From Nitrospinales bacterium (GTDB lineage Bacteria > Nitrospinota > Nitrospinia > Nitrospinales > JAJDAT01): a stretch of DNA of 64,000 nucleotides. Every line of letters starts with the position of its first letter. Position 1 is the stretch's first letter. Below the pieces are notes generated by a model. That model was not told the origin of the DNA and did no database searches. It saw only the letters and a list, made by a program, of their open reading frames with translations. The translations under genes were made by a program, and so were the position numbers. The stretch is taken from NCBI GenBank assembly GCA_046757665.1, contig JBHHYO010000002.1, positions 43,129 to 107,128 on the forward strand, in the 5' to 3' direction. Below are positions 45,277-64,000 of the stretch, in pieces.

Positions 45277-47976
45277 TTAAACGGCCAGTTGGTTGGCGCC
45301 AAGCCGCTTGTAGATTTTCAGGGACTGGTGGTGGCAGGAGAGGACGATCACTTGCCGGGTTGCGGCAAAGGCTTTGAGGATTTTCATGAGGCTGAGCGCC
45401 CGTTCGTCGTCGAAATTGACCAGCACATCATCCATGATCACCGGCAACGGCTCCGAGCGTTTTTCGTATTCTTCAATCAATCCGAGGCGCATGGCCAGGT
45501 AAAGCTGTTCCCGGGTGCCCCGGCTCATTTCCACGACGCCGCGCCGTTGTCCCGATTCGTTGTCGATGAGAATTTCGTCCTTGTCGAGGGGTTTGAAAAT
45601 TTTATTGTACCTGCCGCCGGTCACCCGCGAGAAGATATTTTCCGCGGCCCGTATGACTTCGGGTTGCCGCTCGCGCTCGTATTTTTGCTTGGCCCGCTCC
45701 AGCATGAAATGCGCGATTTTGCAGGTCACCCATTCCCTGGCGCAAAACTTCAATTGCTCGTTCTTGATTCCCAATTCATTCTGCTTGATGAGAAGCTCAT
45801 CCTCCGAGGCCAACTGGTTTAATTCATTACGGATTTCGCCCATTTCCTGATTGACGCGGTCCTTGGCTTCCTGCAATTCCTTTAAATACCGGGTCACTTC
45901 ATCAAGTTCGCGCTGGATTTCCTCGGGATGAGTCTCGTTGATGGATTGCAGGAATTGTTCATAGGCCGCGTCCAACCCGATCCTGGACTGAATGAGGCGG
46001 CGCTTTTCGTCCACGGTGTTTTGTAGCAGTTTCTTTTTATCGAGTTGGCGGCGCTTGTTTTCAAAATCTTCGCCATCGGCAACGTCAAGGGATCGAAAAA
46101 ATTCCTGCAACCCTATTTCGTGTTCATTGATCTGCGACATGAGCCGGTCGATTTTTCCTTCGAGGGCGCTCAACTGAATTTGCAGGCCGGATCGTTTTTC
46201 CCGGTTTCTTTCGGCTTCTTCATAGGCGAGGTTGATCAGATTAATGGCCGGCCCCAGATCCTGCTCCAGGACGGGGGTTTGCAGGGCGGGGGCGATTTCG
46301 CCGACCAGGCCGCCGGCCTTGTCCAGGGTCTCCCGCATCCTTTCCAGCCTCTGGGCCAACTCGTCCCTTTGGCGAAGCAGAGCCTTGACGCGCTTGATGG
46401 TGCCGATCGCCTCTTGCGTGCGGGTGGGAGTCAAATGCTCGTTCAGTTTCTTTTTTCGCAACCAGGCGCGCCAGTCGGCGAATTTTTTATCTTCCTCTTG
46501 CTGTGCCCGCTCCAGCTTTTCGACCAAGAGAGGTTCGAACCGGTCCTCCTTGACCAAAGTATCTTTTCTTTTATAAATCATGCGGGCGGAAACCGCGCCC
46601 AAAACCAGGGTCACCAGCGAAAACGCCATCAGGGGAAAGATCGAGATCAACCAGCCCCACAAAAGCCCGGCCGCGCCCATCCCCAACAGACCGTAAGAAA
46701 CCACTTTCAGCCATTCCGGGATATTCATTCCCCTGGACATTTCCTCCGCTTTCTGGCGCTTATGCTCCTCCAGTTTCTCCCTCGCCCGGCGCACGTTTTG
46801 CTGGCTTTCCACCAAATCTTTCTGACTGACCTCAATGATATCTTTTTCCGCCGGGGTGATCTCAAAACCAGCCACGGCATCCTCATCCCATTGAGGATCG
46901 ATCTCATTGATGTCCGCCTGAATTTGCTCCTTCAACAAGTCCATTTTTTCGCTGATGGCCGGCCGGTCCGCCAGGATCGACAGCGCCTGCTCCGTCATAT
47001 TGCGCAGGCCAACCACGGCTTCCTGGCGCTGTAACAACTTTTCATTGACGGAAATACCGTCGCGTTCCACTTTCAGCTTTTCCCGGTTTTCATTTTCTTC
47101 ATCAAGCCGGTTCTTCAGGTTGCTGAGTTCCAGTTGCATCCCGCGGAGCGTTTCGCAGGCATGTTCCGGAAAGTCGGGAAGGCCGCCAAACCGCCCCAGT
47201 TCTTCCTCGGCTTCCTTTAACTCGACGTACGCCGGATACAAATCCAGCCGGGTCTCCAGAACGCGCCTTTGAGTTTCCAGTTCCTGCGCGGCGCGTTCCT
47301 GGCTTGTTTTATCCTCCTTCAATTTCCCGGCCTTGCTCTGAAGGTCGTCGTACCGGGCCAGGCGGTCCTGAATCTCGCCGATCTCCTGCTGAAGCCCTTT
47401 GATGTCGTTCAGCAACACAGACATTTCCCGGGTTTTTCCTCGCGGAGCAAACAACTCATTACAGCGTTTGCGAAAACTGTCGGCCATGTTGATAATCGAC
47501 TTGGCTCCCAGCCCCATTCCCACGCCGTAAATATGGGTCTTGATCTCTTCCCCCTGAAGCGACCCGAAAGCTTGCAGTTCTTCCAGGGTAAAAGCGAATA
47601 TATTCTGGTAAAGCTCTTTCGAGGCATTGCCGAGAAAAGCGTTTAAATTTTCCTGGCCGTGAAGTTGGCGGGAATCCACCCAAACGGTGACCGTTCCTTT
47701 CTGCGGCCCCGAAGTCCGGGCAATGATAATCTCCTCGCCATTGGCCAGTTGGGAAACAAGCCTTCCCCCGTAAGTCCCTCCATTCAGTGGCGGGTATTGA
47801 TTGACGTTCTGACTTTTGCCGGGAAACCCAAACAAAATCCGCCGAATAAATTCCAGCAGTGTGGTCTTGCCGAACTCATTGGGACCATGGATCACGTTGA
47901 TTCCGGAAGTGAGCCCCTTGACCTGACGGTTGGCAAAGGCTCCGAACCCGTCGATATGTAATTCACGAATTTGCAT
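45277..47976 (-). CDS. YhaN/SbcE-like SMC/Rad50-type ATPase with central transmembrane segment
   Basis: I..L.I.GFG, Walker A GPNEFGKTT, long coiled coils, signature MSRGTREQ and Walker B VIMDDVLVNFD. Confidence 0.9.
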   Translation of the reverse strand: MQIRELHIDGFGAFANRQVKGLTSGINVIHGPNEFGKTTLLEFIRRILFGFPGKSQNVNQYPPLNGGTYGGRLVSQLANGEEIIIARTSGPQKGTVTVWVDSRQLHGQENLNAFLGNASKELYQNIFAFTLEELQAFGSLQGEEIKTHIYGVGMGLGAKSIINMADSFRKRCNELFAPRGKTREMSVLLNDIKGLQQEIGEIQDRLARYDDLQSKAGKLKEDKTSQERAAQELETQRRVLETRLDLYPAYVELKEAEEELGRFGGLPDFPEHACETLRGMQLELSNLKNRLDEENENREKLKVERDGISVNEKLLQRQEAVVGLRNMTEQALSILADRPAISEKMDLLKEQIQADINEIDPQWDEDAVAGFEITPAEKDIIEVSQKDLVESQQNVRRAREKLEEHKRQKAEEMSRGMNIPEWLKVVSYGLLGMGAAGLLWGWLISIFPLMAFSLVTLVLGAVSARMIYKRKDTLVKEDRFEPLLVEKLERAQQEEDKKFADWRAWLRKKKLNEHLTPTRTQEAIGTIKRVKALLRQRDELAQRLERMRETLDKAGGLVGEIAPALQTPVLEQDLGPAINLINLAYEEAERNREKRSGLQIQLSALEGKIDRLMSQINEHEIGLQEFFRSLDVADGEDFENKRRQLDKKKLLQNTVDEKRRLIQSRIGLDAAYEQFLQSINETHPEEIQRELDEVTRYLKELQEAKDRVNQEMGEIRNELNQLASEDELLIKQNELGIKNEQLKFCAREWVTCKIAHFMLERAKQKYERERQPEVIRAAENIFSRVTGGRYNKIFKPLDKDEILIDNESGQRRGVVEMSRGTREQLYLAMRLGLIEEYEKRSEPLPVIMDDVLVNFDDERALSLMKILKAFAATRQVIVLSCHHQSLKIYKRLGANQLAV

Positions 47977-48005
47977 GGATTGGCTTGCTTCCCGTCCGAG
48001 GAAGG

Positions 48006-49262
48006 TTAATCGTCTTCCATCAGTTGATCGAGCGTCAATTCCCTTGCTTCCTGGACCAGGCGCATCAATTCCTCCGGCGTCAAATCGTCCAGGTAGCGGC
48101 CCCCCGGCCACTCTTCAAACAAAGGTTTCAACGTGTCTTTAATGTCATCCAGCAACGCCCCGTTTTCCGCCTCGTCATAAAGGGAAAGAATGTCGGCAAT
48201 GAAATCGTTTCCCTGCCGGCGGGAATCAATGTCATACAATCCCCGCGTATCGAGCCCCAAGTCCACCCAGACGCCGGGAGACCGGGCTGAAAATTGATCG
48301 TGGATATCCTCCTGCAATTCATCCAGGGCTCCCCCCCTGTGCAATTCGGCATGAAGCATCGAGCGGCCGGTAAGTTTGAAGCGAATCAGCACGTCCCGGC
48401 CGTCCATGTCCGAGGAGATTTCTTTGCTTTTGGATCGGATGCTACGCAAAACGTCGTCCAGGCTTGAGCAATGGGTGATATCCATGTCCTGCGAAACGTA
48501 GCGGATGACATCGGTCGCCACGAAGCGAACCTGGGGAGGAGCCTGTTCGCGCAGGGTGACCAGGCAACAGCCTTTCCGGCCCTGTTCCTTGAAACTTCGC
48601 GCCTGGGAGTTGCCGGAATACACCACGGCGGGATCGTGTTCCCTTAATATCTGATGTGCATGAACATGCCCAAGCGCCCAGTAGTCCATGCCTTTTCCCA
48701 AAAGTTGTTTCAATTGGCACGGCGCGTAATTCTCATGGCTGGAGTTGCCGCCCACATTGGTATGCAAAACGCCGACGGCAAATCCCGACGCATGTTTTTT
48801 GTCGAACCGCAAGGCCAGGTTCTCCGTAACCTGGCGCTCGGGAAAACCGATTCCATAAACATGCGCGGTAGGTTTGCCCTCGCGGGCCACCTCGCAACGC
48901 TCCACCCGGTCGCCGGGGAAGATGGTTACATTTTCCGGATACTGGAGAGAGGCGGAGCGACTGTTCAAGGGATCGTGGTTGCCGTGAGCCACAAAGGCCG
49001 GGATGCCGGCCTCGGCAAGCTTTGTCAGGGCGTTGCGGAATTTCAACTGCGCTTGCAGACTTTTGTCCTCCGCGTCATACACGTCTCCGGCGACGATCAC
49101 CGCATCGACCTGTTCCCGCAAGGCCAGGTCGATGATGTTCTGAAACGCCTGGAAAGTCGCGTGGCGCAGTTTTTCCTTCAACTCGGGGCGCACCTTCGCC
49201 AATCCCGAAAACGGCGTGTCCAGATGCAGGTCGGAACAATGTATGAAACGAAACTCAGACAT
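48006..49262 (-). CDS. YhaO-like Mre11/SbcD-family DNA repair nuclease
   Basis: FIHCSDLHLD, AGDVYD, GNHD, LH, YAPC, YWALGHVH and Y.GN.Q.R. Confidence 0.92.
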   Translation of the reverse strand: MSEFRFIHCSDLHLDTPFSGLAKVRPELKEKLRHATFQAFQNIIDLALREQVDAVIVAGDVYDAEDKSLQAQLKFRNALTKLAEAGIPAFVAHGNHDPLNSRSASLQYPENVTIFPGDRVERCEVAREGKPTAHVYGIGFPERQVTENLALRFDKKHASGFAVGVLHTNVGGNSSHENYAPCQLKQLLGKGMDYWALGHVHAHQILREHDPAVVYSGNSQARSFKEQGRKGCCLVTLREQAPPQVRFVATDVIRYVSQDMDITHCSSLDDVLRSIRSKSKEISSDMDGRDVLIRFKLTGRSMLHAELHRGGALDELQEDIHDQFSARSPGVWVDLGLDTRGLYDIDSRRQGNDFIADILSLYDEAENGALLDDIKDTLKPLFEEWPGGRYLDDLTPEELMRLVQEARELTLDQLMEDD

Positions 49263-50626: not shown

Positions 50627-50693
50627 GTAAACGGCTTCACGGGTGGTTCACCATACCTTCTTATCCATTTCGTCGAACGACGTTTATCGAACG

Positions 50694-51416
50694 ATGCAAC
50701 CCGGTATTTTAACCTTGAAACGTTTCATTTACGTCCCGGTTTTTTTTCTTCTTTCCGCAAGCCTGTTGCTGACCGGGTGCGGCGGGAAAGAAACCGGCCC
50801 CGTCGAACGATTGGCGCAACAGCTTCAAAAGGAGCCGGAGTATGCCATCATTCTCAACGATATGAAGGAGGAGGGGAATTTTTTCCCCACGTATTACCAC
50901 CAGTACCGCGTAGATATTGGAGAAGAGTCCAAGACCTATCCGTTTGTGGAAGTCAGCGAATCCTATTACAAGAAAAATCAACCGTACCTGGGAATGGTGC
51001 TGGCATCCAAAACGGCCGACGGCAAAGTCTCGCATACCCCGTTTCCCAACGGCTATCAATACGTGGGAAACCCTCAATACGGACAATGGAGAACGGATTC
51101 CAGCGGCGGCAGTTTTTGGGAGTTTTATGGGAAATACATGCTGATTTCCCAATTGATGCACTGGGCCGGGGGCGGCCTGGGGCGAAATCATTACAATACC
51201 TATGCCTCCTACCAGGCAAACGGCCGGCCCTTTATGGGGCCCCGCGGGGAATACGGCACCAACGGCACCATCACCCGCAAGCAAAAACCGAATTTCTACG
51301 CCCGCAGACAAATGCGAAAGGCCCGGTCGACGGGCCGGTTTCAAGACAAAATCAACAGAAGAATCGGCCGCAGTAAAAATACCTTCAGAAGCCGCGGTTT
51401 CGGGTTCGGGAAATAA
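50694..51416 (+). CDS. Conserved hypothetical lipoprotein with Arg/Gly-rich tail
   Basis: Lipobox LLTGC, IIL.DM, YYHQY, YVGNP.YG.W and SFW.FYG.Y, ending RSRGFGFGK. Start uncertain (50643, 50694 or 50714). Confidence 0.75.
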   Translation: MQPGILTLKRFIYVPVFFLLSASLLLTGCGGKETGPVERLAQQLQKEPEYAIILNDMKEEGNFFPTYYHQYRVDIGEESKTYPFVEVSESYYKKNQPYLGMVLASKTADGKVSHTPFPNGYQYVGNPQYGQWRTDSSGGSFWEFYGKYMLISQLMHWAGGGLGRNHYNTYASYQANGRPFMGPRGEYGTNGTITRKQKPNFYARRQMRKARSTGRFQDKINRRIGRSKNTFRSRGFGFGK

Positions 51417-51418
51417 CC

Positions 51419-52264
51419 ATGTGGCTTGATCAATTCCTCACTTCCATAATCTACCTGGCATCCTGTTTCGCCATTTTTGTCCTGGGACACTTCGGTTTCC
51501 TCCTGTTTCGATCGGGCTACAACATCAAGAATGAACTGGTGGAAAAGGACAACGCCGCCCTGGCCTTGACCTTATGCGGATATTATCTGGCGCTGATTTT
51601 TTCCGTCGGCGGGGTGATCGACGGCCCATCCGCCGGCTTGTCCGAAGACATGGCGGACATCGTGGTTTACGGCCTGCTCGCCATCGTCTTGCTGAATATT
51701 TCGGCAGTCATCAATGATCGGTTGATTCTCTCGAAGTTCAATATCCGCAAGGAAATTCTCGAGGATCAAAATTGCGGCACCGGCGTCGTGGAGATGGCGG
51801 TTTTCATTGCGACGGGATTGAATATTTATGGCGCGGTCTTCGGCCAGGGAGGAGACATTTATACCGCCATCGCCTTTTGGGCCGTCGGCCAGGCCATCCT
51901 GGTTCTGGTCGGCAAATATTACAACCTGATTACCCGTTACGATATTCACACCCATATTGAGCGGGACAACGTAGCGGTCGGAGTCGGCTTTGCAGGCGCC
52001 ATGATCGCCATGGGCAATCTGTTGCGGGCCGCTTCCGCCGAGGACTTTGTTTCGTGGGGGACAAACCTGTGGGGATTTTTTTCCTTTGTGGTCGTCGGAG
52101 CGATTCTGTTGCCCGCCGCCCGTACCTTTACCGACCGGATTCTACTGCCCGGAAGAAAACTGGCGGACGAATTGACCAACCAGGAAAAACCCAACATGGG
52201 CGCGGCATATCTGGAAGCCTGTTCCTATATCGGGTCATCCCTCTTGATCACCTGGTGTTTCTAA
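51419..52264 (+). CDS. DUF350 family membrane protein (duplicated)
   Basis: Repeated EL..KDN.A.A, EI..QN.G.G, IE.DN.AVG and EL..Q..N.G.A units. Confidence 0.85.
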   Translation: MWLDQFLTSIIYLASCFAIFVLGHFGFLLFRSGYNIKNELVEKDNAALALTLCGYYLALIFSVGGVIDGPSAGLSEDMADIVVYGLLAIVLLNISAVINDRLILSKFNIRKEILEDQNCGTGVVEMAVFIATGLNIYGAVFGQGGDIYTAIAFWAVGQAILVLVGKYYNLITRYDIHTHIERDNVAVGVGFAGAMIAMGNLLRAASAEDFVSWGTNLWGFFSFVVVGAILLPAARTFTDRILLPGRKLADELTNQEKPNMGAAYLEACSYIGSSLLITWCF

Positions 52265-52361
52265 ACGACGGGGAATCATTCGGAGCCGGTTCCCGGATTT
52301 TTCATTACCCCATACCCGTTGAAGACCGTAGCGGGTCGGCCCTTGCTCCACCCCTTGGCGG

Positions 52362-53939
52362 GTGAACCGTGCCATGGAGAACGCCTCATCTCCGCCCGAT
52401 ACTCGCGGGCTGAATTTCACGCTTAAGTCCTGCATATTCGCCACCGGTTGCGCCGCCATTGTTGCCGAATACACCCTGGCCACCCTGGCCAGCTATTTGC
52501 TCGGCAATTCCATTTTCCAATGGACGGTGGTGATTTCCCTGATGCTGTTCAGCATGGGGCTGGGAAGCCGGTTCAGCAGGGAAATCCGGGAACACTTGCT
52601 CGACCGCTACGTGCTCATCGAATTTGCCCTTTCGTTTTTTTGTTCCGTATCGGCCATTTTCTGCTATGGCATTTCCGCGTTCACTCCGCACACCAGCCTG
52701 GTCATTTACGGAGCCGCCTGCCTGATCGGATTTTTCATCGGCCTGGAACTGCCGCTCATCACCCGCATCAACAACGCCTACGAATCGTTGCGGATCAACA
52801 TTTCCTCCGTCATGGAATACGATTATTATGGCGCGCTGGTCGGCGGCGGCCTGTTCGCGTTTTTTCTCCTGCCCGTTCTGGGGCTGACGTATACGCCCAT
52901 CCTGCTGGGGGCAATCAACCTGCTGGTCGCCGGGGTGGTCATCTGGAAGTTCGCGGCATTGCTGGTTCGGCCCTTCGTCCTGCGCGCCGCCTTCGCCGCT
53001 TCGCTGACCGCGATTTGCCTGGCCGGCCTCGCCGCCAAACCCATTGTCCTGTTTGGCGAACAACACAAGTACAAGGATAAAATCATTTACCAGGAACAAA
53101 CCCGGTTCCAGAAAATCGTCGTCACCCAATGGAAAAACAACTACTGGCTTTTTCTCAACGGCAGTACCCAGTTCAGCACCTACGATGAGGAGCGCTACCA
53201 CGAACCGCTGATCCATCCGGCGCTACAATTGCTGAAGGAACGCGGCAACATCCTTGTTCTCGGCGGTGGCGACGGACTGGCCGTCCGGGAAATTTTAAAA
53301 TATCCCGACGTGAAACACATCACGCTGGTTGACCTCGACCCGGCCATGACCCGCCTCGCCCGAACCCATCCCGTTTTCCTGAACATCAACCACGGCTCCC
53401 TGAACGACCCCCGGGTTGGGGTGATCAATCGAGACGCTTACCAGTTCGTCGCCACCAACAACGAACTTTATGATGCGGTGATCATCGACCTGCCGGACCC
53501 CAAGTCCGTTTCCCTGTCCCTGCTTTACTCCGTCGGATTTTACAAAATGATCCGAAGGCACTTAAAGCCATACGGCGCGATGGTCACCCAGAGCGCAAGC
53601 CCGCTGTATTCTCCGGATGCCTTCCTGTGCGTCAAAAAAAGCCTGGAGGCGGCGGGATTTTCCGTTGTCCCGTACCAAAATTCCATCCCCACCATGGGCC
53701 AATGGGGATGGAACCTCGGAGTCAAAAAACAAACCATGCACGCCGAAGCCGTCAGGGAAAAACTGCTTCGACTCGATTTTAAAAACATCGAAACCCGGTT
53801 CATCAATCGGGACGCCATGATCGCCATGACCCATTTCGGCAAGGGATTGTTTGAGCGCGAGGCATCGATCGAACCCAACACCGAGTTCAATCACAAGATC
53901 ATGGAATATTACCGGAAAGGGAGTTGGGACGTTTACTAG
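52362..53939 (+). CDS. speE: Membrane-bound polyamine aminopropyltransferase (spermidine synthase-like)
   Basis: N-terminal TM block (L.SYLLGNS..Q, G.E.P, DY.G.L.G), then T.FQ.IV, YHE.L.HP, LGGGDG and DLPDP. Confidence 0.9.
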   Translation: MNRAMENASSPPDTRGLNFTLKSCIFATGCAAIVAEYTLATLASYLLGNSIFQWTVVISLMLFSMGLGSRFSREIREHLLDRYVLIEFALSFFCSVSAIFCYGISAFTPHTSLVIYGAACLIGFFIGLELPLITRINNAYESLRINISSVMEYDYYGALVGGGLFAFFLLPVLGLTYTPILLGAINLLVAGVVIWKFAALLVRPFVLRAAFAASLTAICLAGLAAKPIVLFGEQHKYKDKIIYQEQTRFQKIVVTQWKNNYWLFLNGSTQFSTYDEERYHEPLIHPALQLLKERGNILVLGGGDGLAVREILKYPDVKHITLVDLDPAMTRLARTHPVFLNINHGSLNDPRVGVINRDAYQFVATNNELYDAVIIDLPDPKSVSLSLLYSVGFYKMIRRHLKPYGAMVTQSASPLYSPDAFLCVKKSLEAAGFSVVPYQNSIPTMGQWGWNLGVKKQTMHAEAVREKLLRLDFKNIETRFINRDAMIAMTHFGKGLFEREASIEPNTEFNHKIMEYYRKGSWDVY

Positions 53940-54301: not shown

Positions 54302-55264
54302 ATGGAAACGACGAAAAAGCGCTTCAACGGGTTTTACCTTTTGCTGATACTGGTTTTATCGGTTGCCCATCCATTCGAAGAAAACAGTGACGCACAGGAG
54401 ATCACTCCGCCGGACGTTTTTTCCCGTGTGGCGCTTGTGCGAAATGAGATTGAACTCATTCGACGTTATATGGGCAAGCCAAAAGAAACTCGGCCCGAAA
54501 TTGAAATCGCCGATGCCGCTCCACGGGAAGTTTATTTCCAGGCTTTAACTCTTTTTCGCAAGATAGATCAGCTTTGTTTTGAGTTGACCCGCCAGCGCGC
54601 TGTTATGCCGCCCATCCCCGCCGCTGAAATTCATCCGTCCCATGTACTGGAGGTGGTACAGGCCGGCCTGGAATGCCTGCAGGAAATCAAAAAGGAGATG
54701 AATATCACCCAAACCAACGTTGCGCCGGAGCGGGATATGAATAAAACACCTAGCGATGTGTTTCGCTCTGTCGTTCAAGGCAACCGTCAGATTAACCTTC
54801 TGCTTGTCAGGGAATTTTCCCCGAGCGACGTCTACCAGGAAGTAACAACAGCGATCAATTATGCGGCTTTTCTTTTGAGGCGATTCCCGGACATAGAAAC
54901 AAGAATCCCGGACGCCCCGCCCTTTGAAAGCAACAAGGTTCCTGCCGATGTTTACCGCCTTCTCGTCAAATGCTTTGCCCTGATCCGGGAAATTTCCAAT
55001 TTGTCGGGATTGACAATGTTAAAATGGAACGACACCGAAGACACGGATAAACTTGTTCCGAGTGACGTGTATGACATTGCTTCCCTGCTCATCTCCGAGT
55101 TGCATTATATCAACCAGCAAGCCGGAAATAATCCTCCTCCGAAATCTTATTTTCCGGGTCTCAGGTTTCCGTCTCATGTTTTCCAGCGCGCCGGAATCCT
55201 TAAAACGCAACTGATGGAATTGCTAAAACAAGTTAAGGCTCAGCCGAACTGGCTGAAAAAATGA
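54302..55264 (+). CDS. Exported hypothetical protein with eight P-x-(D/E/H)-V helical repeats
   Basis: N-terminal hydrophobic segment. Repeats PPDVF, PREVY, PSHVL, PSDVF, PSDVY, PADVY, PSDVY and PSHVF. Confidence 0.75.
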   Translation: METTKKRFNGFYLLLILVLSVAHPFEENSDAQEITPPDVFSRVALVRNEIELIRRYMGKPKETRPEIEIADAAPREVYFQALTLFRKIDQLCFELTRQRAVMPPIPAAEIHPSHVLEVVQAGLECLQEIKKEMNITQTNVAPERDMNKTPSDVFRSVVQGNRQINLLLVREFSPSDVYQEVTTAINYAAFLLRRFPDIETRIPDAPPFESNKVPADVYRLLVKCFALIREISNLSGLTMLKWNDTEDTDKLVPSDVYDIASLLISELHYINQQAGNNPPPKSYFPGLRFPSHVFQRAGILKTQLMELLKQVKAQPNWLKK

Positions 55265-55265
55265 A

Positions 55266-57632
55266 ATGACAGGTGGCTCAATGGAAGTCGGGCAAAAACT
55301 TGGGAAAATAAAGTTCGGCCTTAAGCACAAACTGTTGCGCTCCCATTTGGGTTTGGCGGGAATTGGAGTAGGTTTGCTTTTGGTTTCTTTAACCTCCACT
55401 TTATGGTTGCGGGATAGCACTCTTCACCTGGCTTTGGAAAGCGGGCCTAAATTGGGGTCCTTAAAAAGTCTGGACAAGGGAATCCAACGTTCCCTTGCCG
55501 CTTTGCGTGGATGGTTGCTGTTGAAAACCCCCGATCTCCGGGATGAAAGAAAACATACCTGGAAAGAGGAAATATGGCCTCAAGTAAACGCGCTCGAAAA
55601 AGCAAACTGGGTGGCAACGGCAGGCAACCAAAATGCCTTGGCAAAATTGAAACGCCTCCTCATCGACTTGTTTGAATGGCAGTGGCGGATTGAGGATGTC
55701 GCGGATACTCCAGGCAATGAACCGGCACAAGTGGCCTTGCGACATAACGTAATTCCGGTAGCGGATTCTATCAAGGTGGCCATTACCGCTCTCATTAAAT
55801 TGGAGAATCAGTTACAGGAAAACGGGAAACGAAAAAGAATACTTTCCTCAATAGCGGAATTTCGCCACTTGTTCAGCCGCGGCCATGCGTTTCTTACCGG
55901 TTTTGTAGCGTCTGCCGATCCCATTGATGAAGAACGGTTCCATCAGGATTTAAATTCAGCAGTCAACGTGCTTCAAGACTTGAACGACAGCCAGAATATT
56001 TTAACCGTGGAACAGTGGGAACTGCTTCGCTGGATTCAAACCGAGTTTCAAGCTTACGTTTTTTTCAGCAAGGAAACTTTATCCCTAAGAAAAACCGACA
56101 ACTGGAACGTATCGCAAGCATGGCTGGGCAATCAGGCATTACCGCTTGTGCGGCAGATAAACGATCTTTTGCAGTTCCTTTCGCTTAACCTCGAAAAGGA
56201 AATGGCAACAGACGCCGAAGAGGCCGCAACCCTCAGCAATATTTCCATATCGCTGGATTTTCTGTTGATCGTGATCATGATCCTGGCGGCGGTTTTTGTG
56301 TCCAGGTATGGCGCCGAACAAATCATCAAACCCATCGCGGCGCTGGCACGGGGCACCAAAAAATTCGCGGACAACCAGTTGACCACGGATATTCCTGTAA
56401 CCAGCGAGGATGAAATCGGGCTTCTCACCAAATATTTTAATACCATGCGAGCGTCTCTGGTCGAAAGCTATGGCCGCACTCGATCTATCGTGGACTCCGC
56501 CGTGGACGGCATTATCACAATCGATGAAAGCGGCACCGTGGAGTCGTTCAACAAATCCGCCGAACAAATTTTCGGCTACTCGGCCAAGGACGTGGTTGGC
56601 CGGAATGTGAAAATGCTGATGCCTGAATCCTATTCCAACGAACACGGCGATGAGCTTGTGAATGACCTGAAAGCAGGTAAAGCCGGAATTCTGGGCGTCG
56701 GACACGAAGTGAAGGGACAACGAGAAGACGGATCCGTTTTTCCCATGGACCTCGCCGTCAGCGAAATGCACGCAGGTAAAAATCATTTGTTTATTGGCAT
56801 CGTGCGCGACATCACCGAGCGCAAGCAGATAGAGAAGGAGCTGGCAAGGCACCGTGATTATCTCGATGAACTGGTGAAAAAACGAACCCGCGACCTGGAA
56901 GCGGCCCAGGAGGAATTGGTGCGCAGGGAGCGACTGGCGACCCTGGGTGAATTGTCCGCCAAGGTCAGCCACGAAATCCGCAACCCCCTGATGACCTTGC
57001 GTATGTTGATTACCAGCTTCGGCCAGTCGGTGCACGGCAACCCGGAGATCGAGAATATGCTGACGATGGCGGAACGCAACATCGTGCGTTGCGAGAACAT
57101 CATCGAAGAGCTTCTGGATTTTGCCCGCTCCCATCGTGACAGAAAGCAGGAAGTCACCGCCATAGACCCGTGGTTGAATGAACTGATCGACGAACAAACG
57201 GCGCCGGAGCAAGTGACGGTCGAAAAAAATCTTGCTTCCGGGGCAAAGGTAAATTTGGACCGGGAGCGGTTTCGCCGGGCCGTAATCAATGTCATGAACA
57301 ATGGGTACCAGGCTTTAATGGGGAAGTATGACCGGGGGAATGAAGACTCTCGGGAAACAGAAGACTACCTGTTGGTTGTGGAAACCGGGGTTGCCATGGA
57401 AAAGCTTGAAATCCGTATCCGCGATACCGGCATCGGCATTCCACCCGATCAGCTGGAAAAAATTTTCGAACCCATGTACAGCACCAAGAGCTTTGGCGTC
57501 GGCCTGGGATTGCCGATCGTCAAGGAAATCCTGCAACAACACAACGGTGGAATTGAAATTGAAAGCCAACTCAACAAAGGCACTACCATCCTTTTATGGT
57601 TGCCCCTGATCAAGAGTGAAAGCGCATCATGA
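55266..57632 (+). CDS. Sensor histidine kinase (TM-periplasmic helical sensor-TM-HAMP-PAS-HisKA-HATPase)
   Basis: DEIG.L...FN.M, DGII.ID..G....FN, RDITERK, HEIRNPL, DTGIGI and GLGL. Confidence 0.93.
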   Translation: MTGGSMEVGQKLGKIKFGLKHKLLRSHLGLAGIGVGLLLVSLTSTLWLRDSTLHLALESGPKLGSLKSLDKGIQRSLAALRGWLLLKTPDLRDERKHTWKEEIWPQVNALEKANWVATAGNQNALAKLKRLLIDLFEWQWRIEDVADTPGNEPAQVALRHNVIPVADSIKVAITALIKLENQLQENGKRKRILSSIAEFRHLFSRGHAFLTGFVASADPIDEERFHQDLNSAVNVLQDLNDSQNILTVEQWELLRWIQTEFQAYVFFSKETLSLRKTDNWNVSQAWLGNQALPLVRQINDLLQFLSLNLEKEMATDAEEAATLSNISISLDFLLIVIMILAAVFVSRYGAEQIIKPIAALARGTKKFADNQLTTDIPVTSEDEIGLLTKYFNTMRASLVESYGRTRSIVDSAVDGIITIDESGTVESFNKSAEQIFGYSAKDVVGRNVKMLMPESYSNEHGDELVNDLKAGKAGILGVGHEVKGQREDGSVFPMDLAVSEMHAGKNHLFIGIVRDITERKQIEKELARHRDYLDELVKKRTRDLEAAQEELVRRERLATLGELSAKVSHEIRNPLMTLRMLITSFGQSVHGNPEIENMLTMAERNIVRCENIIEELLDFARSHRDRKQEVTAIDPWLNELIDEQTAPEQVTVEKNLASGAKVNLDRERFRRAVINVMNNGYQALMGKYDRGNEDSRETEDYLLVVETGVAMEKLEIRIRDTGIGIPPDQLEKIFEPMYSTKSFGVGLGLPIVKEILQQHNGGIEIESQLNKGTTILLWLPLIKSESAS

Positions 57633-58441
57633 CGGATAAGACCTCGACTTCAAAAGAAGGATCGCCCGCCCGCCGGGTTCTGGTCGTGGACGACGATCGG
57701 GATTTGGCGAAATCTCTTAGCTTCGTTCTGGATTTAAACGGGTACGAAACCCTGGTGGTGCACAACGAAAAGGATGCTCTGGAAGCGGTTAAAAAATTTG
57801 ATGCCCAGGCGGCTTTGCTCGACGTCCGTTTGGGGCAAGCCAACGGTATCGATCTGATTCCCGCGCTCCAGAAAGAGCGTCCTTCTATTCTTTGCATCAT
57901 GATCACCGCCTATGGCACGGTGGACTTCGCCGTCCGCGCCCTGAAAAAAGGCGCCTACGACTACCTTCGCAAACCGACCAGTTCGCAGGAACTGCTGGCC
58001 ACTCTGAACCGGTGCTTTGAAAAAATCCGCCTGGAAAATGAAAAGGCGGCCGCCGAAAATGCCTTGCGGGAAAGCGAGACCCGTTTTCGAGCCATTGTCC
58101 AGACCGCGGCAGACGGTATTATCACCTTCGATGAACGCGGCATTATTGAATCCATCAACCCGGCGGTAGAACGGATTTTCGCCTACAAGGCGGAGGAAAT
58201 GATCGGCAAAAACATCCGCCTGTTGATTCCGGAATCAGGCAAAAATGAAAACGACAACCCTATTGGAAATTTTTGCGGCGGGGAAGCCGACAACATAGGC
58301 CGAAGACGGGAGGTGGTCGCTCAACGCAAGGATGGTTCGACTTTTCCAATAATGCTGAGCGTCAGCGAAATCCATTTGCATGGACGGCGCCTTTTTTCCG
58401 GCATCATGTGCGACATCGCCGACCGAAAGCAAGCTTTATAG
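57629..58441 (+). CDS. Response regulator, REC + PAS, with no output domain (possibly truncated)
   Basis: VLVVDDD, LLDVRL, ITAY and GAYDYLRKP, then a PAS domain ending CDIADRKQAL*. Confidence 0.8.
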   Translation: MTDKTSTSKEGSPARRVLVVDDDRDLAKSLSFVLDLNGYETLVVHNEKDALEAVKKFDAQAALLDVRLGQANGIDLIPALQKERPSILCIMITAYGTVDFAVRALKKGAYDYLRKPTSSQELLATLNRCFEKIRLENEKAAAENALRESETRFRAIVQTAADGIITFDERGIIESINPAVERIFAYKAEEMIGKNIRLLIPESGKNENDNPIGNFCGGEADNIGRRREVVAQRKDGSTFPIMLSVSEIHLHGRRLFSGIMCDIADRKQAL

Positions 58442-58574: not shown

Positions 58575-61500
58575 ATGGCAGAATATTTTGAAGTTGCAAT
58601 AATCGGCGCGGGCCCCGGAGGATTGAGCGCCGCGGCCAATGCCGCCCATCACAACCTCTCCCACGTTCTCTTTGAAAAGGGCGAGATCGCCAACACCATC
58701 CATGAATATCAGTTGCGCAAACACGTCATGGCGGAGCCGGCAAAACTCCCTTTGCGCTCACACATAAAATTTGAACCGGGAACTCGGGAGGAGACCTTGC
58801 AGTCCTGGATCAGGACTGTTCACGAAGCCAACATCAATGTCCGGCAACAAACAGCGGTTTCCAGAATTGAAAAAACAGAGGCAGGTTTTAAAGTATTTTT
58901 TGGCAACAAGCATATCACCTGCAAAACAATCATTCTGGCGATTGGAGCGATGGGAACCCCGCGGCGACTGGAGGCGCCAGGGAGCGATTTGCCTCATGTC
59001 ACTTACCGATTGGCCGATCCGGGCGCGTTTGAGGATGAAGATATCATTGTGGTCGGCGCCGGCGACGCCGCCATCGAAAATGCCCTGGCGCTGGCCGATA
59101 AAAACCGCGTCTCCATCATCAACCGGAAGGGCGAGTTCGCCCGCGCCAAGGACGCCAACGCGGCCTTGATCAAGAAAGCCATCGACACGGGAAAAGTGTG
59201 TTGTTATTACAACTCCACGGCCGCCAGAATCGAACCCAAACAAATCGTCATCAATACTCCCGACGGTGAAGTCGTTTCAAACTGTACGCACTTGATCGCC
59301 CGCCTGGGCGGCATCATGCCGCGAAAGTTTCTGGAGGAATGCGGCATCGAGTTTCCGTCTCCCAACCCCACCGCCGTACCGGTCGTGGATAGCCGGTACG
59401 AGTCCAATGTCAAGGGCCTCTACCTGGTTGGATCCCTCATTGGCTATCCCCTGATCAAGCAGGCGATCAACCAGGGTTATGAAGTCATCGAACATATCCT
59501 GGGAAACCCCATCGAACCCTCGGACCAGGTCTTGATCGAGGAAAAACTCAATTGCCTGCCCGGCACGGTCAACGAAAATCTGGAGATGATCCGGAACAGC
59601 CTGCCCCTGTTCCGCGAATTAAGCGACCCTCAGTTCCGCGAGCTTGTCTCGGAATCGACCGTTCATGTCAAAAAACAGGGAGACCTCATTTTCCAGAGGA
59701 ACGATTATACCGACACTTTTTTCAGCATTATCTCGGGAAGCGTCAAAATCGAACTGCCGGACCATAAATTTAAGGAAATAGAGACGGGCAACTTCTTTGG
59801 AGAAGCGGGTTTGTTGTCGGGCCGCCGGAGGGCCGCGACCATTCGCATGTACCAGCCGGGCCTGCTCCTTGAGACGCCGCGCAAACAAATGCTCAAGCTC
59901 ATCAGTTCGGTGGAATCGGTCAAGCGGGACCTGGATGAAATTTCCATGTTCCGGGCAACCCAAACCGGCCTCTTCCCCTATGTGACCTTGCAAATCCTGA
60001 AAGATATCATCTCCACGGCTTCCTTGAAGCAGTACCAAAAGGGGCAACCCCTGTTCAGGGAAGGAGATGAGGCCAATACGTTCTTTGTGATCCGCAAGGG
60101 GTCGGTAAAAATTTCCCGCCTTATCAATGATGTCGATGTGACCCAATCCTACTTGCCGGCGGGACATTATGTCGGCGAAATGGCAATCCTCAATCCCGAC
60201 CCGACGCCGTGCCGTGAAACAGCTACCGCGGCGGTTGCCTGTGAAACCATTGTGATCAACAAATCCGATTTTTTGGAATCGCTGGAGGATAACCCCATTG
60301 CGGCTGAAAAGATCCGCAAAACCGCCAAGGCGCGCCTGATCGAAGATCGCGCCATCGGAGGGCAAAGGTTATCGGGAGAACTCTTGGATTTCATGATCGG
60401 CAAAGGTTTGTCCGACGCGGACAACGTCTTGCTCATCGACTCCAACCGCTGTGTGGGATGCGACAACTGCGAACAGGCCTGCGCCGCCACGCATGATGGT
60501 TTCAGCCGCCTGGACCGCAAAGGCGGAGAAAGTTTTGCGTCCATTCAAATTCCCATTTCCTGCCGGCATTGCGAAAACCCCTTGTGCATGATCGACTGTC
60601 CACCCGACGCCCTGGCCCGCCAGCCCAACGGAGAAATCACCATAAAAGATTCCTGCATCGGTTGCGGCAACTGCGAGAAGAACTGTCCTTACGACGTCAT
60701 CCAGATGGTTTACGAACCCCTTAAAAAGGAAAAGTTTTCGTTTCTTACTTCCTTTTTCAAGCCAAAGGCGACCGGCGAAAATGCTGTTCAAAAGGCGGCG
60801 AAATGTGACTTGTGCACCGGCCTGGAGGGCGGCCCGGCCTGCGTCCGGTCCTGCCCCACCGGCGCCGCCATGCGCGTAAATCCCGCTGAAATGCTCGAAT
60901 TGACGGAACAGGAAGCATCCAAGGAAAACATTCTCAACTATAAACACTACCGCTGGTTCTGGCTCAACCTTTCAGGCCTTGCCTTGTTGATCCTGTTTTA
61001 TTTTGTCGATGACCCGGTTGGCGGCAAGGGAGGGAATACCTTGCTGGGGTACATTTATGGAGGTTTGGCCACCCTCGGAATCATTACATTGATGGGGTTT
61101 GGCATCAGGAAACGCTCCTACTCTTCTACCAAAGGAACCGTGACGGGCTGGCTGTCGGCGCATATCTGGATCGGTTTATCCCTGTTACTGATCGTTCCCA
61201 TGCACAGCGGTTTTCAATTCAATCTTAATGTCCATACGCTGGCTTATGGCCTCCTGGTCGCCACGATTGCCAGCGGCATCTGGGGCGCTCACAATTACGT
61301 TCGCTTCCCGCCCCAGATCCCTTCCCACCGGGGAGATGATAAAACCACGGACCTCGCGGACCAAATCATGGAGATTTCGTTGGACCTGGCAAGATTGGAA
61401 CAAAACCAAAGCGATCAATTTCTCAAGTTGATCGACTTAATAGACTTTCCGTTTAAGCCCCGTCTTCAAAGGCTGATAATTTTTAAAACCCGATCAAAAT

Positions 61501-61736
61501 CTTCAAAGGAAAAAAAGCTTAAGAGTCTCATTGCCGACCTGCCTGAAGTGGAGAGGGACAAGGCGCTCAAGGCCGTGAGCCTTGTCAGCAAAAAAAGAGA
61601 ACTGATGGGCAAGCTACAACAGGATATCAGCGTTAACTTCTGGATGAAAGTCTGGCTTTATTTCCATCTGCCCCTGTCGTTTGCCCTTATTCTTGCAGTC
61701 ACCATACACATTTTTTTGGTTTTTTATTACTGGTAA
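58575..61736 (+). CDS. Multidomain oxidoreductase: TrxB/YpdA-like FAD/NAD(P)H domain + 2 cNMP-binding domains + 4x[4Fe-4S] + His-containing membrane domain
   Basis: GAGPGG, GAGDAA, FFGEAGL...RAAT and YVGEMA. Four Cys clusters of DmsB/HydN type. TM helices carry WLSAH, MHSG, NVH, FHLP and IH. Confidence 0.88.
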   Translation: MAEYFEVAIIGAGPGGLSAAANAAHHNLSHVLFEKGEIANTIHEYQLRKHVMAEPAKLPLRSHIKFEPGTREETLQSWIRTVHEANINVRQQTAVSRIEKTEAGFKVFFGNKHITCKTIILAIGAMGTPRRLEAPGSDLPHVTYRLADPGAFEDEDIIVVGAGDAAIENALALADKNRVSIINRKGEFARAKDANAALIKKAIDTGKVCCYYNSTAARIEPKQIVINTPDGEVVSNCTHLIARLGGIMPRKFLEECGIEFPSPNPTAVPVVDSRYESNVKGLYLVGSLIGYPLIKQAINQGYEVIEHILGNPIEPSDQVLIEEKLNCLPGTVNENLEMIRNSLPLFRELSDPQFRELVSESTVHVKKQGDLIFQRNDYTDTFFSIISGSVKIELPDHKFKEIETGNFFGEAGLLSGRRRAATIRMYQPGLLLETPRKQMLKLISSVESVKRDLDEISMFRATQTGLFPYVTLQILKDIISTASLKQYQKGQPLFREGDEANTFFVIRKGSVKISRLINDVDVTQSYLPAGHYVGEMAILNPDPTPCRETATAAVACETIVINKSDFLESLEDNPIAAEKIRKTAKARLIEDRAIGGQRLSGELLDFMIGKGLSDADNVLLIDSNRCVGCDNCEQACAATHDGFSRLDRKGGESFASIQIPISCRHCENPLCMIDCPPDALARQPNGEITIKDSCIGCGNCEKNCPYDVIQMVYEPLKKEKFSFLTSFFKPKATGENAVQKAAKCDLCTGLEGGPACVRSCPTGAAMRVNPAEMLELTEQEASKENILNYKHYRWFWLNLSGLALLILFYFVDDPVGGKGGNTLLGYIYGGLATLGIITLMGFGIRKRSYSSTKGTVTGWLSAHIWIGLSLLLIVPMHSGFQFNLNVHTLAYGLLVATIASGIWGAHNYVRFPPQIPSHRGDDKTTDLADQIMEISLDLARLEQNQSDQFLKLIDLIDFPFKPRLQRLIIFKTRSKSSKEKKLKSLIADLPEVERDKALKAVSLVSKKRELMGKLQQDISVNFWMKVWLYFHLPLSFALILAVTIHIFLVFYYW

Positions 61737-61763
61737 AAGTTTCTGGAAATAAAAAAACCCGCC

Positions 61764-64000
61764 ATGAAAATCAAACACGTTGTCGAAACCATAAGCCCGG
61801 ATGGCCACCGCCAGTCCTTCACCAAGGAATTTGACAAAGAGAAGATCATTATCGGGCGCGGCAGTGCCTCGGATATTTTATTTACCAGCCGCCTCGTTTC
61901 CTTCAGACATGCCCGGTTGACGCTTGCCGAAGGCAAGCTTTTGGTCGAGGACCTTGGCTCCACTAGCGGGATCAGCATTAACGACCACGTTGAAACGAGG
62001 GCTTTCCTCAAACCTGATGACATCCTGAAAATCGGCGATGTGTTTCTAAAGGTGGTTTTTGAGAATGAGGTCTGGTCGCTTCTCGAAACCCGCCTGGAAA
62101 GCGATGCCGAAGACAAAAAAATCCGGGACGCAACCACTCCCGACAAACTGGATTTAACCAACCGCCTGCCCTCCTACGCGGGAATTTCCCTGGCCTTGGT
62201 CAGCCTCATCCTGTTGCTTTTTCTGGCCGCTCCGTTAATCAGCGGCAACGAAGTCATCTGGAACAGCGGGCCTATTTCCAGGGCGCACAAGTTTCTTGAA
62301 AAGGATTGCAAGACTTGCCATCAAAACGGATTTGAAAGGGTTAAAGACGAAGCCTGCGAGACTTGCCATGCCATGGGCAACCATTCCAAAATCCTGGTGC
62401 AAAATCCGCGGTTCAACGAGAAATGCGCCACCTGTCACCGGGAACATGCCTCCCATGCGAGATTGATTGCAAACAGCCCCAAGGTCTGCGTAAACTGCCA
62501 CGCCGGCATCCGGGATATCCATCCGGAATCAAAATCTCCTTCCATAACCGGATTCAACCAAACACACCCGGAATTCGCCCTGATCCGGCAAGGCCGCGCC
62601 GACCGCGCCAACATCAAACTAAACCACAACTTCCACCTCACCAAGGTGGAAGTGGCAGAACCCGTCACCAGGAAAAAGCGGCGCATGAAATGTGAGGACT
62701 GCCATGCTCTCGATCCGTCCGGGGCCTATATGAAACCCATCACCTTCAATGAAGTCTGTTGGAGGTGTCATGAGTTAAGCGTTGGGCTGACCGCCCTCGA
62801 CTTGCAGGCTCCGCATGTTATCCCCGCCTCGGTGAGAGCTTTTCTTGCGACGCCCGATGATTTTCTACTCGAATATATCAATAACGGCGACTCAACAGGC
62901 AATCCAAAGGCTCCCCCAATAAGAAAGGAAAGGACCGAGCCGCCTCAAAAAACCAGAGCACAATGGCTCCAGACCTATATGGAAAAAATCAAAAAGCAGG
63001 AAGGATTGAATGCAAGAGAAAGCAACATATTTTTTTTAAACAGGGACGCCTGCGTCCGCTGCCATTTTCTCGATGTCGAACCGGTTGCAGGTGTGAACCC
63101 CAACTCCTCCCTGACCGCATTCAGCCTGTGGGATCACGACGTCAGAATATGGGATATCGCGTCCGGCAAGGACAAGGCGTTGCTCAAGGGACATAAGGAT
63201 GTTGTGAATGCCGTCCAGTTCAGCCCGGACGGCAACCGGCTGGTCACCGCCTCCAGGGATTTTACCGCCAGAGTCTGGAACCTCGCCGACCTGGAAAAAC
63301 CTCCGCTGGTACTCCAGAAGCATACCAGGTCGGTGAACAGCGCGGTCTTCAATTCCGCTCAGGACAAAATCATAACCGCTTCCAGCGACAAAACCGCCAT
63401 CCTATGGGATGTCGCTTCCCAAAAGGCAATTCACACCCTGGAGAAACATAACAGTCCCGTCCTGAAAGCTCTTTTCAACAAGGATGCAACCCGGATGGCA
63501 ACCCTGGCGGCCGATTACACCGCCATGATTTGGGACGCGGAAACCGGCAAGGTTCTTGCCGACAACCTCAAACCCGAGTCCCAGGATATTATGGACGTGG
63601 TTTTCAGTCCGGACGGCGGCAGGCTGGTCGGAGCGCTTTCCGACGGTTCCATCAAGGTGTGGAGCGCCGTGGATGGAAAAGAATTGCAAACCCTCCCCAG
63701 GGGGCAAGGGCCGCGGGATTTCGTCTCCGGGCACAGCAAGGAAGTAACCGCTATCACGTTCAGCCCGGACGGCTCGAAACTGCTTTCCATCTCCAAGGAT
63801 CAATCGGTGAAGATTTGGCACCTGAGCCAGGCCGTTGTCCAGACCACCCTGGTGGTTTATGATCCCCCCGAAAAGGACGAGGACAAAAAAATCGCGCCTC
63901 AGCGGTTTCTCACCGCGGCGTTCAACCCTGACGGGTCAAAGGTGGTTACCGGCTCCACCGACAAACTGGTTCGGCTGTGGGATGCGGAATCCGGCAGGAT
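61764..64000 (+). CDS. FHA domain + TM + multiheme cytochrome c (at least 7 CXXCH) + WD40 propeller; 3' end outside the window and absent from the ORF track
   Basis: Manual translation from ATG 61764 is open to the window end. It gives IIIGRG...VSFRHA...VEDLGSTSG, a TM helix, CKTCH, CETCH, CATCH, CVNCH, CEDCH, CWRCH, CVRCH, then WD repeats (VRIWD, ARVWN, AILWD, AMIWD, IKVWS, VKIWH, VRLWD). Confidence 0.9.
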   Translation, partial: MKIKHVVETISPDGHRQSFTKEFDKEKIIIGRGSASDILFTSRLVSFRHARLTLAEGKLLVEDLGSTSGISINDHVETRAFLKPDDILKIGDVFLKVVFENEVWSLLETRLESDAEDKKIRDATTPDKLDLTNRLPSYAGISLALVSLILLLFLAAPLISGNEVIWNSGPISRAHKFLEKDCKTCHQNGFERVKDEACETCHAMGNHSKILVQNPRFNEKCATCHREHASHARLIANSPKVCVNCHAGIRDIHPESKSPSITGFNQTHPEFALIRQGRADRANIKLNHNFHLTKVEVAEPVTRKKRRMKCEDCHALDPSGAYMKPITFNEVCWRCHELSVGLTALDLQAPHVIPASVRAFLATPDDFLLEYINNGDSTGNPKAPPIRKERTEPPQKTRAQWLQTYMEKIKKQEGLNARESNIFFLNRDACVRCHFLDVEPVAGVNPNSSLTAFSLWDHDVRIWDIASGKDKALLKGHKDVVNAVQFSPDGNRLVTASRDFTARVWNLADLEKPPLVLQKHTRSVNSAVFNSAQDKIITASSDKTAILWDVASQKAIHTLEKHNSPVLKALFNKDATRMATLAADYTAMIWDAETGKVLADNLKPESQDIMDVVFSPDGGRLVGALSDGSIKVWSAVDGKELQTLPRGQGPRDFVSGHSKEVTAITFSPDGSKLLSISKDQSVKIWHLSQAVVQTTLVVYDPPEKDEDKKIAPQRFLTAAFNPDGSKVVTGSTDKLVRLWDAESGR

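Follow-up and report, generated by a model that had tools for sequence, protein, structure and literature searches.

A fused flavin–ferredoxin–membrane protein and its WD40-bearing decaheme partner in a Nitrospinales bacterium: a candidate cyclic-nucleotide-gated trans-membrane electron conduit

The 64,000-nucleotide stretch analysed here (the window; Nitrospinales assembly GCA_046757665.1, contig JBHHYO010000002.1) ends in two forward-strand genes for which an original prediction, made from the sequence alone, proposed a signal-gated wire linking the cytoplasmic NAD(P)H pool to a periplasmic heme chain. Gene 1 is a single open reading frame (58575..61736, +; 1053 aa) in which a soluble subunit of about 780 aa is fused to a membrane subunit of about 270 aa, and gene 2 starts at 61764 (+), 27 nt past its stop codon. 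The end of the window is also the end of the contig (C2 of the host genome, G000) and cuts gene 2 (61764..64000). Its remainder lies on contig C30 (G000:C30:3-605), joined by an exact 55-nt overlap, giving a protein of about 928 aa with 10 CXXCH motifs. Reading the downstream sequence for further partners, as had been recommended, added three CXXCH to gene 2; past it, no further operon gene was seen on C30. The host genome is 97.6% complete, and the closest homologues carry the names Nitrospinaceae or Nitrospinota. Its contig C22 encodes a Tat-exported molybdoenzyme operon, which we take to be a periplasmic NxrABC. Two hydrothermal-vent metagenome runs contain the window DNA, no RNA run was present among the listed sources containing it, and a promoter and terminator scan of the locus gave chance-level matches only.

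The domain make-up foreseen for gene 1 (a TrxB/YpdA-like flavin domain, two cyclic-nucleotide-binding (cNMP) domains, Fe-S motifs and a His-rich membrane domain) was borne out by Pfam matches and alignments. Conservation of the soluble part is given over 118 aligned homologues, that is, the 119 listed non-self matches of a search with 2470 matches, minus one internally duplicated protein. The flavin domain (58575..59504, +; residues 1–310) is matched by Pyr_redox_3 over residues 9–286 (E 3.6e-37) and carries GxGxxG, GAGDAA and N-R-x-x-x-F-x-R-A-K motifs. It is nearest to YpdA/Bdr, yet stays below the family cut-off (161.7 bits against TIGR04018, cut-off 339.9); TrxB is more distant (73.7 bits against TIGR01292, cut-off 343), and the PDB match is 7a7b (E 1e-18). 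We presume that its nucleotide-binding motif (GxGxxA plus an Arg for the 2'-phosphate) is of the NADPH type. As predicted, no redox CxxC occurs at the position it occupies in thioredoxin reductase (TrxR). The domain thus combines the TrxR fold and an NAD(P)H-binding motif with the absence of CXXC, as do the TrxR-like ferredoxin–NADP+ reductases (FNRs) and Bdr/YpdA; TrxR-like proteins without CXXC are described as commonly moving electrons between NAD(P)H and ferredoxin (PMC10294844). Unlike these proteins, the flavin domain of gene 1 shares its chain with cNMP, ferredoxin and membrane domains.

Two stretches of gene 1 match cNMP_binding (Pfam, E 1.7e-32). The first (59595..59939, +) has an intact phosphate-binding cassette, in which G409, E410 and R419 are present in 118/118 homologues and A421 in 117/118. 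The cassette of the second (59958..60344, +) is degenerate in the window copy, with Cys546 in place of an Arg found in all 118 homologues and Glu548 in place of an Ala found in 116; contigs of both samples cover this position without differences. Such degeneration is not peculiar to the window copy, since 18 of 66 more distant homologues retained a single canonical cassette and four had none in a crude pattern count. Two class III cyclases are encoded in the host genome. The predicted control by cyclic nucleotides is therefore plausible through site 1, whereas the cassette of site 2 is degenerate. One 1458-aa homologue (P0013) has the flavin-cNMP-cNMP block doubled ahead of a single ferredoxin.

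The DmsB/HydN/NrfC-type ferredoxin (60429..60890, +) is covered by several Fer4 models (residues 659–764). All four Cys motifs quoted in the original prediction are present, and their 16 Cys, predicted to hold four [4Fe-4S] clusters, are nearly invariant: 15 in 118/118 homologues and the remaining one in 117/118. A basic-aromatic insert after the third motif (residues about 716–738, about 60720–60790) recurs with similar character in homologues and is a possible membrane-binding segment.

The membrane domain (60945..61733, +) has five transmembrane (TM) helices, all present in its AlphaFold2 (AF2) model (mean predicted local confidence, pLDDT, 93), a cytoplasmic helical insert of about 110 residues and a basic RKR loop. 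It belongs to a family of 1264 clusters at 50% identity. Among the 135 homologues that are 240–360 aa long in the best 150 matches, the H-x13-H pair on TM3 (His863 and His877) is kept in all 135 and that on TM5 (His1031 and His1045) in 131; a fifth His, H887 at the periplasmic end of TM4, is conserved in 130. The four conserved His thus lie on TM3 and TM5, the two helices whose His define ferric reductase domains (FRD; PMC3591440), and we predict that they bind two b hemes. Profile matches point weakly towards b-type cytochromes: PF01292 was matched by 82 of 126 family members and PF01794 by 13 (both at E<=0.1; best E for PF01794 3.4e-4). A profile search of the PDB with the membrane domain returned coiled-coil noise only.

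Related membrane domains occur with other electron inputs. In a same-family genome, a single 856-aa chain (L059:7509-10079, −; G001:C3) joins two cNMP domains, a BFD [2Fe-2S] domain and an FNR-type FAD/NAD(P) domain to a membrane domain with two H-x13-H pairs, which aligns to the present family in hhalign (80%, E 1.4e-5), and is followed by the gene of an 11-CXXCH cytochrome. By analogy, this chain resembles a protein of the NADPH oxidase (NOX) type with cNMP domains instead of EF-hands. Elsewhere (L058:4031-8557; G028:C46), an FNR-[2Fe-2S] gene precedes one that joins a related membrane domain to DUF547, and a 7-heme cytochrome comes after it. Since the L059 chain is fused to its own flavin input and the same core is accompanied by an FNR-[2Fe-2S] gene in ptd-type operons, the input chemistry varies while the membrane domain and the multiheme protein remain constant.

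The fusion in gene 1 is itself unusual. At the junction (60891..60944, +), relatives have a stop codon and a new start. Among the 119 listed non-self matches to gene 1, 117 are at most 830 aa long and comprise the soluble part only; one of the other two is the internal duplication and one is fused (P0055). The best 150 relatives of the membrane domain are all at most 474 aa long, and in gene 1 the membrane-domain profile matches with E 7.8e-26. Of 92 genomes surveyed in the phylum, 41 contain a match to the membrane domain and eight contain the close subfamily (E<1e-89), at nine places, with only the window copy in a long frame; none of the 33 metagenome loci (out of 80) that show both subunits is fused. 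An assembly frameshift was considered and dismissed as the cause, because contigs from two samples (both perhaps source DNA, from one study) span the junction with 0 differences. The two parts are also joined in P0055/P0291, which belongs to a distant lineage, shows 50% and 40% identity in the respective parts and is seen on 14 contigs. The closest relatives of the window copy are split while these distant proteins are fused, so that the fusion most parsimoniously arose twice. A search for longer homologues returned only the query, and it also missed the known fused protein P0055. The nearest relative is a second, unfused operon copy in the same bin (G000:C148:1424 to C150:2487), located after a gene that is presumably CheB-like. 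Contigs C148/C150 have a GC content of 49.6% against 54.8% genome-wide, a tetranucleotide distance in the 7% tail and no overlap link to other contigs; they may be paralogous or belong to a sister population that entered the bin. As a natural fusion, gene 1 argues for a direct partnership between the ferredoxin and the membrane subunit. An AF2 model of the two parts reached a predicted TM-score (pTM) of 0.65 with many ferredoxin blocks at pLDDT <55, a confidence in the ferredoxin too low for the model to inform on docking or cofactor spacing.

Gene 2 is built, as foreseen, of an N-terminal forkhead-associated (FHA) domain, one TM helix and seven CXXCH within the window; its WD40 repeats and its continuation onto C30 are additions to that description. 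The cytoplasmic FHA/YscD-like domain (61803..62057, +; residues 28–91, E 9.6e-12) is followed by the TM helix (62172..62237, +; residues about 137–158, from sequence and alignment) and a first heme region (62259..63083, +), in which seven CXXCH are accompanied by seven further His (175, 207, 228, 268, 288, 291 and 351) that are invariant in an alignment of 18 sequences, suggesting bis-His c hemes. Between heme 7 and hemes 8–10, a WD40 beta-propeller (63084..64000, +, with its last repeat on C30) occupies residues about 445–745 (PF00400, E 8.5e-46) and has eight repeats by manual count. The same insertion is present in L002 and L018, both Nitrospinales homologues, and in L067; forms of gene 2 of about 930–1000 aa occur in L017, L022 and L053, and WD40 repeats were found in one of 29 metagenome homologues. 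In complex prediction, the membrane domain paired with residues 125–345 of gene 2 scored 0.52 (best of three controls 0.00), with at least 88% contact agreement between runs and a partner pLDDT of at least 70. Of 157 solved complexes, 116 attain the mark used, as do 2 of 215 mismatches; at scores <=0.60 it is attained by 18 of the 157 and by both mismatches, so that the model lends weak support to a contact between the membrane domain and gene 2.

Phospho-Thr recognition by canonical FHA domains uses G-R, S-x-x-H and N-G residues. The first two are present in gene 2 (G31-R32 and S46-x-x-H49), the Arg is kept in 14 and the Ser in 11 of 17 homologues, and the usual N-G-T Asn is absent from all 18 sequences including gene 2. 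In the host genome we found no Hanks kinase, either with PF00069, a model that matches 11 of 14 controls, or by a motif scan, no PP2C phosphatase in a PF13672 profile search, and no FHA protein in the bin other than the two copies of gene 2. The phospho-Thr control proposed in the original prediction is therefore unsupported in this genome. Among five relatives, Ser/Thr kinases are present in three (G001, G003 and G004) and none was found in G023 or G087.

The regulatory domains nevertheless raise the alternative that the chain reports the periplasmic redox state and, together with its cNMP and FHA domains, controls partner proteins without carrying bulk current. Two cNMP domains, an FHA domain and a WD40 propeller are unusual for respiratory complexes, three genomes of the same family encode a stand-alone cNMP-binding protein of about 110 aa in divergent orientation ahead of the operon (L017:13932-14267, L018:5466-5795 and L022:13000-13329), and a gene that is class III cyclase-like by sequence lies 7 kb upstream of the cluster in L003. 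However, the core has no output domain of the kinase, DNA-binding or cyclase type, the kinase search was also negative in G023, and sixteen redox centres would be excessive for a sensor. We consider such a signalling device improbable.

Downstream of the core, three same-family genomes carry triheme, HbpS/GlcG-like, porin-like and large multiheme genes, the label porin resting on size, position and sequence, with no family model matched. The widespread operon of this subfamily, with six to seven genes, has the same order of soluble, membrane and decaheme genes as the window copy, and it usually adds HbpS/GlcG-like, porin-like, tri- or tetraheme and large multiheme genes, outer genes that were not found in the host genome. 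The usual form is a three-gene core within the larger operon rather than the two-gene system of the original prediction. An equivalent gene set is present on pMSHV of Sphingobium herbicidovorans in two convergent blocks (B6S01_RS18455-18410). Where gene 2 has 9–10 hemes, the gene that comes next is GlcG-like in 15 of 20 metagenome loci, and the host genome contains only a small generic GlcG. The porin query matched in G001, G069 and G089 and had no match in G023 or G087. On another host contig (L056:14045-19547, −; G000:C10), tandem 11- and 10-CXXCH cytochromes, ExtM-like below the cut-off, stand with a diheme gene and are a possible periplasmic partner.

The original prediction mentioned similar multi-gene clusters in other phyla, and related ones have indeed been published as ptdEFG and as the NHC cluster. 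Elbon, Stewart and Glass named ptdABCDEFG, of unknown function, with a core of PtdE (cNMP and Fe-S), the ferric-reductase-like membrane protein PtdF and the decaheme PtdG (bioRxiv 10.1101/2023.11.21.568154). Taking as reference the ptd operon L021 in G018, recognised by gene content only, gene 1 matched the PtdE-like (E 3.8e-42) and PtdF-like (E 1e-8) proteins, and gene 2, likewise a decaheme protein, matched the PtdG-like one (E 1e-12). In contrast, the pentaheme PtdA, the porin PtdB, the FNR-type oxidoreductase PtdC and the tetraheme PtdD went unmatched in the host genome by tblastn (E<=1e-3), which makes the window system a sister system of ptd rather than a member of it. A TrxR-like flavin domain is fused in place of the separate PtdC, the E and F parts that are separate in ptd are joined, the decaheme protein bears FHA and WD40 domains, and four Fe-S clusters are predicted where the ptd account gives two (bioRxiv 10.1101/2023.11.21.568154).

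The NHC cluster of Ferrigenium straubiae, listed as IMG 28784098774-76 and also of unknown function, comprises an FHA-TM-multiheme protein, a 5-TM protein and a [4Fe-4S] protein, and the trio is described as expressed in all conditions tested (bioRxiv 10.64898/2026.01.22.701106). Compared by description only, it resembles the window system in having an FHA-TM-multiheme protein adjoining 5-TM and [4Fe-4S] parts. It differs in having nine hemes rather than ten, three separate genes rather than a fusion, and no WD40 domain in the account as far as available. A 10-heme "Forkhead-associated protein" cluster was also reported by Hoover et al. in Gallionellaceae (PMC10734462), and surveys of the type of Kop et al. 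mention unexplained multiheme clusters in Nitrospinaceae that are not shown to be the present cluster (PMC11995701).

Becker et al., who saw no redox motif in the NHC membrane protein, propose inward flow to quinone in this iron oxidiser (bioRxiv 10.64898/2026.01.22.701106). Applied to the window system, the membrane domain would harbour a quinone site, with the multiheme protein feeding the quinone pool inwards or NADPH reducing quinone, as in FdnHI- or NrfCD-type systems. In agreement with this, the ferredoxin is of the DmsB/NrfC/FdnH type, whose members normally adjoin a quinone-reactive anchor, H887 is conserved at the periplasmic end of TM4, and there are the weak PF01292 matches. On the other hand, the four His are all kept, including the pair on the cytoplasmic side, the membrane domain is repeatedly fused to, or encoded next to, an NAD(P)H-flavin module, equipment beyond the needs of a quinone reductase, and no quinone-site motif was recognised. 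We therefore regard a quinone-coupled function as rather unlikely.

With moderate confidence, we favour instead an outward, cyclic-nucleotide-gated conduit at the inner membrane, leading from NADPH via FAD, four [4Fe-4S] clusters and two b hemes to the decaheme protein and acting in the manner of a NOX or ferric reductase with a longer wire. We propose the following hypothetical sequence of events, in which (i) NADPH would reduce the FAD, the TrxR-like domain serving as a ferredoxin–NADP+ reductase and not as a disulfide reductase; (ii) single electrons would pass along the four [4Fe-4S] clusters; (iii) they would cross the membrane via two bis-His b hemes between TM3 and TM5; (iv) the ten c hemes of gene 2, a protein that its TM helix would anchor beside the membrane domain, would take them up on the periplasmic side; and (v) a periplasmic acceptor, which the WD40 propeller might dock, would finally receive them. 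Relatives would probably extend this route by a tri- or tetraheme protein, a porin and a large multiheme cytochrome. Binding of cAMP or cGMP to the cNMP tandem, located between the flavin and ferredoxin domains, would switch the flow, here via site 1, and the FHA domain would more likely be a phosphorylation-independent assembly or docking module. The domains, the gene order, the fusions and the conservation of the ligand residues for each carrier over 118–135 homologues are observed; all cofactors, the direction, the gating and the acceptor are inferred from them and from general redox chemistry. The proposed direction follows from redox potentials: NADPH, at about −320 mV, would release electrons outwards, a flow that the membrane potential likewise favours, and nitrite, at about +420 mV, is too weak a reductant to push electrons back along such a chain to NADP+.

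The trans-membrane wire of the original prediction thus fits the anatomy of the two proteins, with ligands in series, a ferric-reductase-like His topology, repeated input fusions and a weak contact model. As in NOX/FRD proteins and MsrPQ, NAD(P)H-flavin input would be combined with four His on TM3 and TM5 and export across the membrane (PMC3591440), and ligand-binding regulatory domains are present, cNMP domains here and EF-hands in NOX5. Unlike NOX/FRD proteins, the window copy has five helices with a long cytoplasmic insert, a flavin domain of TrxR rather than FNR fold, a four-cubane relay and a multiheme acceptor. More tentatively, the family may represent a cyclic-nucleotide-gated bacterial analogue of NOX, in which a four-cubane and di-heme wire would carry NADPH electrons outwards, with the window copy as a self-contained two-protein version. 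Its WD40 propeller would then dock a client in the periplasm that serves, for instance, to repair Nxr reductively or to mature it there, or to remove reactive oxygen species or nitric oxide, and this copy would be the simplest construct for testing electron export switched by a second messenger.

Several observations weigh against the outward conduit. The membrane domain of the window copy exceeds no Pfam cut-off, and PF01794 is unmatched in the host genome; a Foldseek search with its model gave nothing at E<=0.001, and in fold comparison cytochrome b561 (Z 8.0–8.1) ranked among unrelated helical bundles and STEAP4 (Z 7.9, root-mean-square deviation 4.3, 146 aligned residues) was tied with such bundles. 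No membrane gene was seen in the fetched DNA of 47 of the 80 metagenome loci, and at several of these the soluble gene ends the cluster despite 7 kb of downstream sequence. A tetraheme gene was seen upstream in 26 of the 47, which suggests a permuted operon order there: at these loci (L087-L143), large multiheme and tetraheme genes apparently stand upstream and the soluble gene last. Outward spending of NADPH is costly for a nitrite oxidiser. In agreement with the original prediction, which knew of no functional characterisation, a literature search that left most subscription journals outside its reach found no cofactor or activity demonstrated for any family member. Finally, the porin and the outer multiheme cytochrome of the operon were not found in the host genome with the queries used.

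This last result would also be expected if the window copy were a decaying orphan that has lost its outer module and is drifting, with the fusion and the broken cNMP site 2 as neutral accidents. The second, split copy in the bin would agree with such decay, as would the response regulator directly upstream (57629-58441, +), which ends after its PAS domain and has no output domain, as at a rearrangement point. Against it, the Cys, His and CXXCH ligands are all intact, dN/dS between the window copy and the second copy is 0.15–0.23 in all five regions tested, and a three-gene form without porin also occurs in G023 (97% complete). Decay thus appears a poor explanation of the locus, and an outward conduit remains the reading we prefer.

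The genes at 54302-58441 were considered as part of the system and rejected, because the upstream neighbours are not constant in L002, C148 and L017/L018/L022. Besides the response regulator, they comprise a HAMP-PAS histidine kinase that precedes it (55266-57632) and a 320-aa protein without a match in Pfam or NCBIfam (54302-55264). Further upstream lie a row of genes that we take to encode Gly/Tyr-rich lipoprotein-like, DUF350-like membrane and spermidine-synthase-like membrane proteins (50643-53939, +), and a metallophosphoesterase gene followed by that of a long coiled-coil ATPase (45277-49262, −), presumably an SbcD/SbcC- or YhaO/YhaN-like pair.

In summary, the core described here is already published in kind, being homologous to ptdEFG and matching the description of the NHC trio, and is known in silico only. 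What is new is that the soluble and membrane subunits are fused, that a WD40 propeller is inserted into the decaheme protein, that the gene set is reduced, that cNMP site 2 has lost its Arg and that a kinase is missing from the searches. The core belongs to a large family described only in silico, for which opposite guesses on the direction of electron flow have been made, and the fusion provides a single-reading-frame construct for biochemistry. If the proposed gating holds true, it would represent second-messenger control of bacterial trans-membrane electron export, of which no description turned up in the literature searched.

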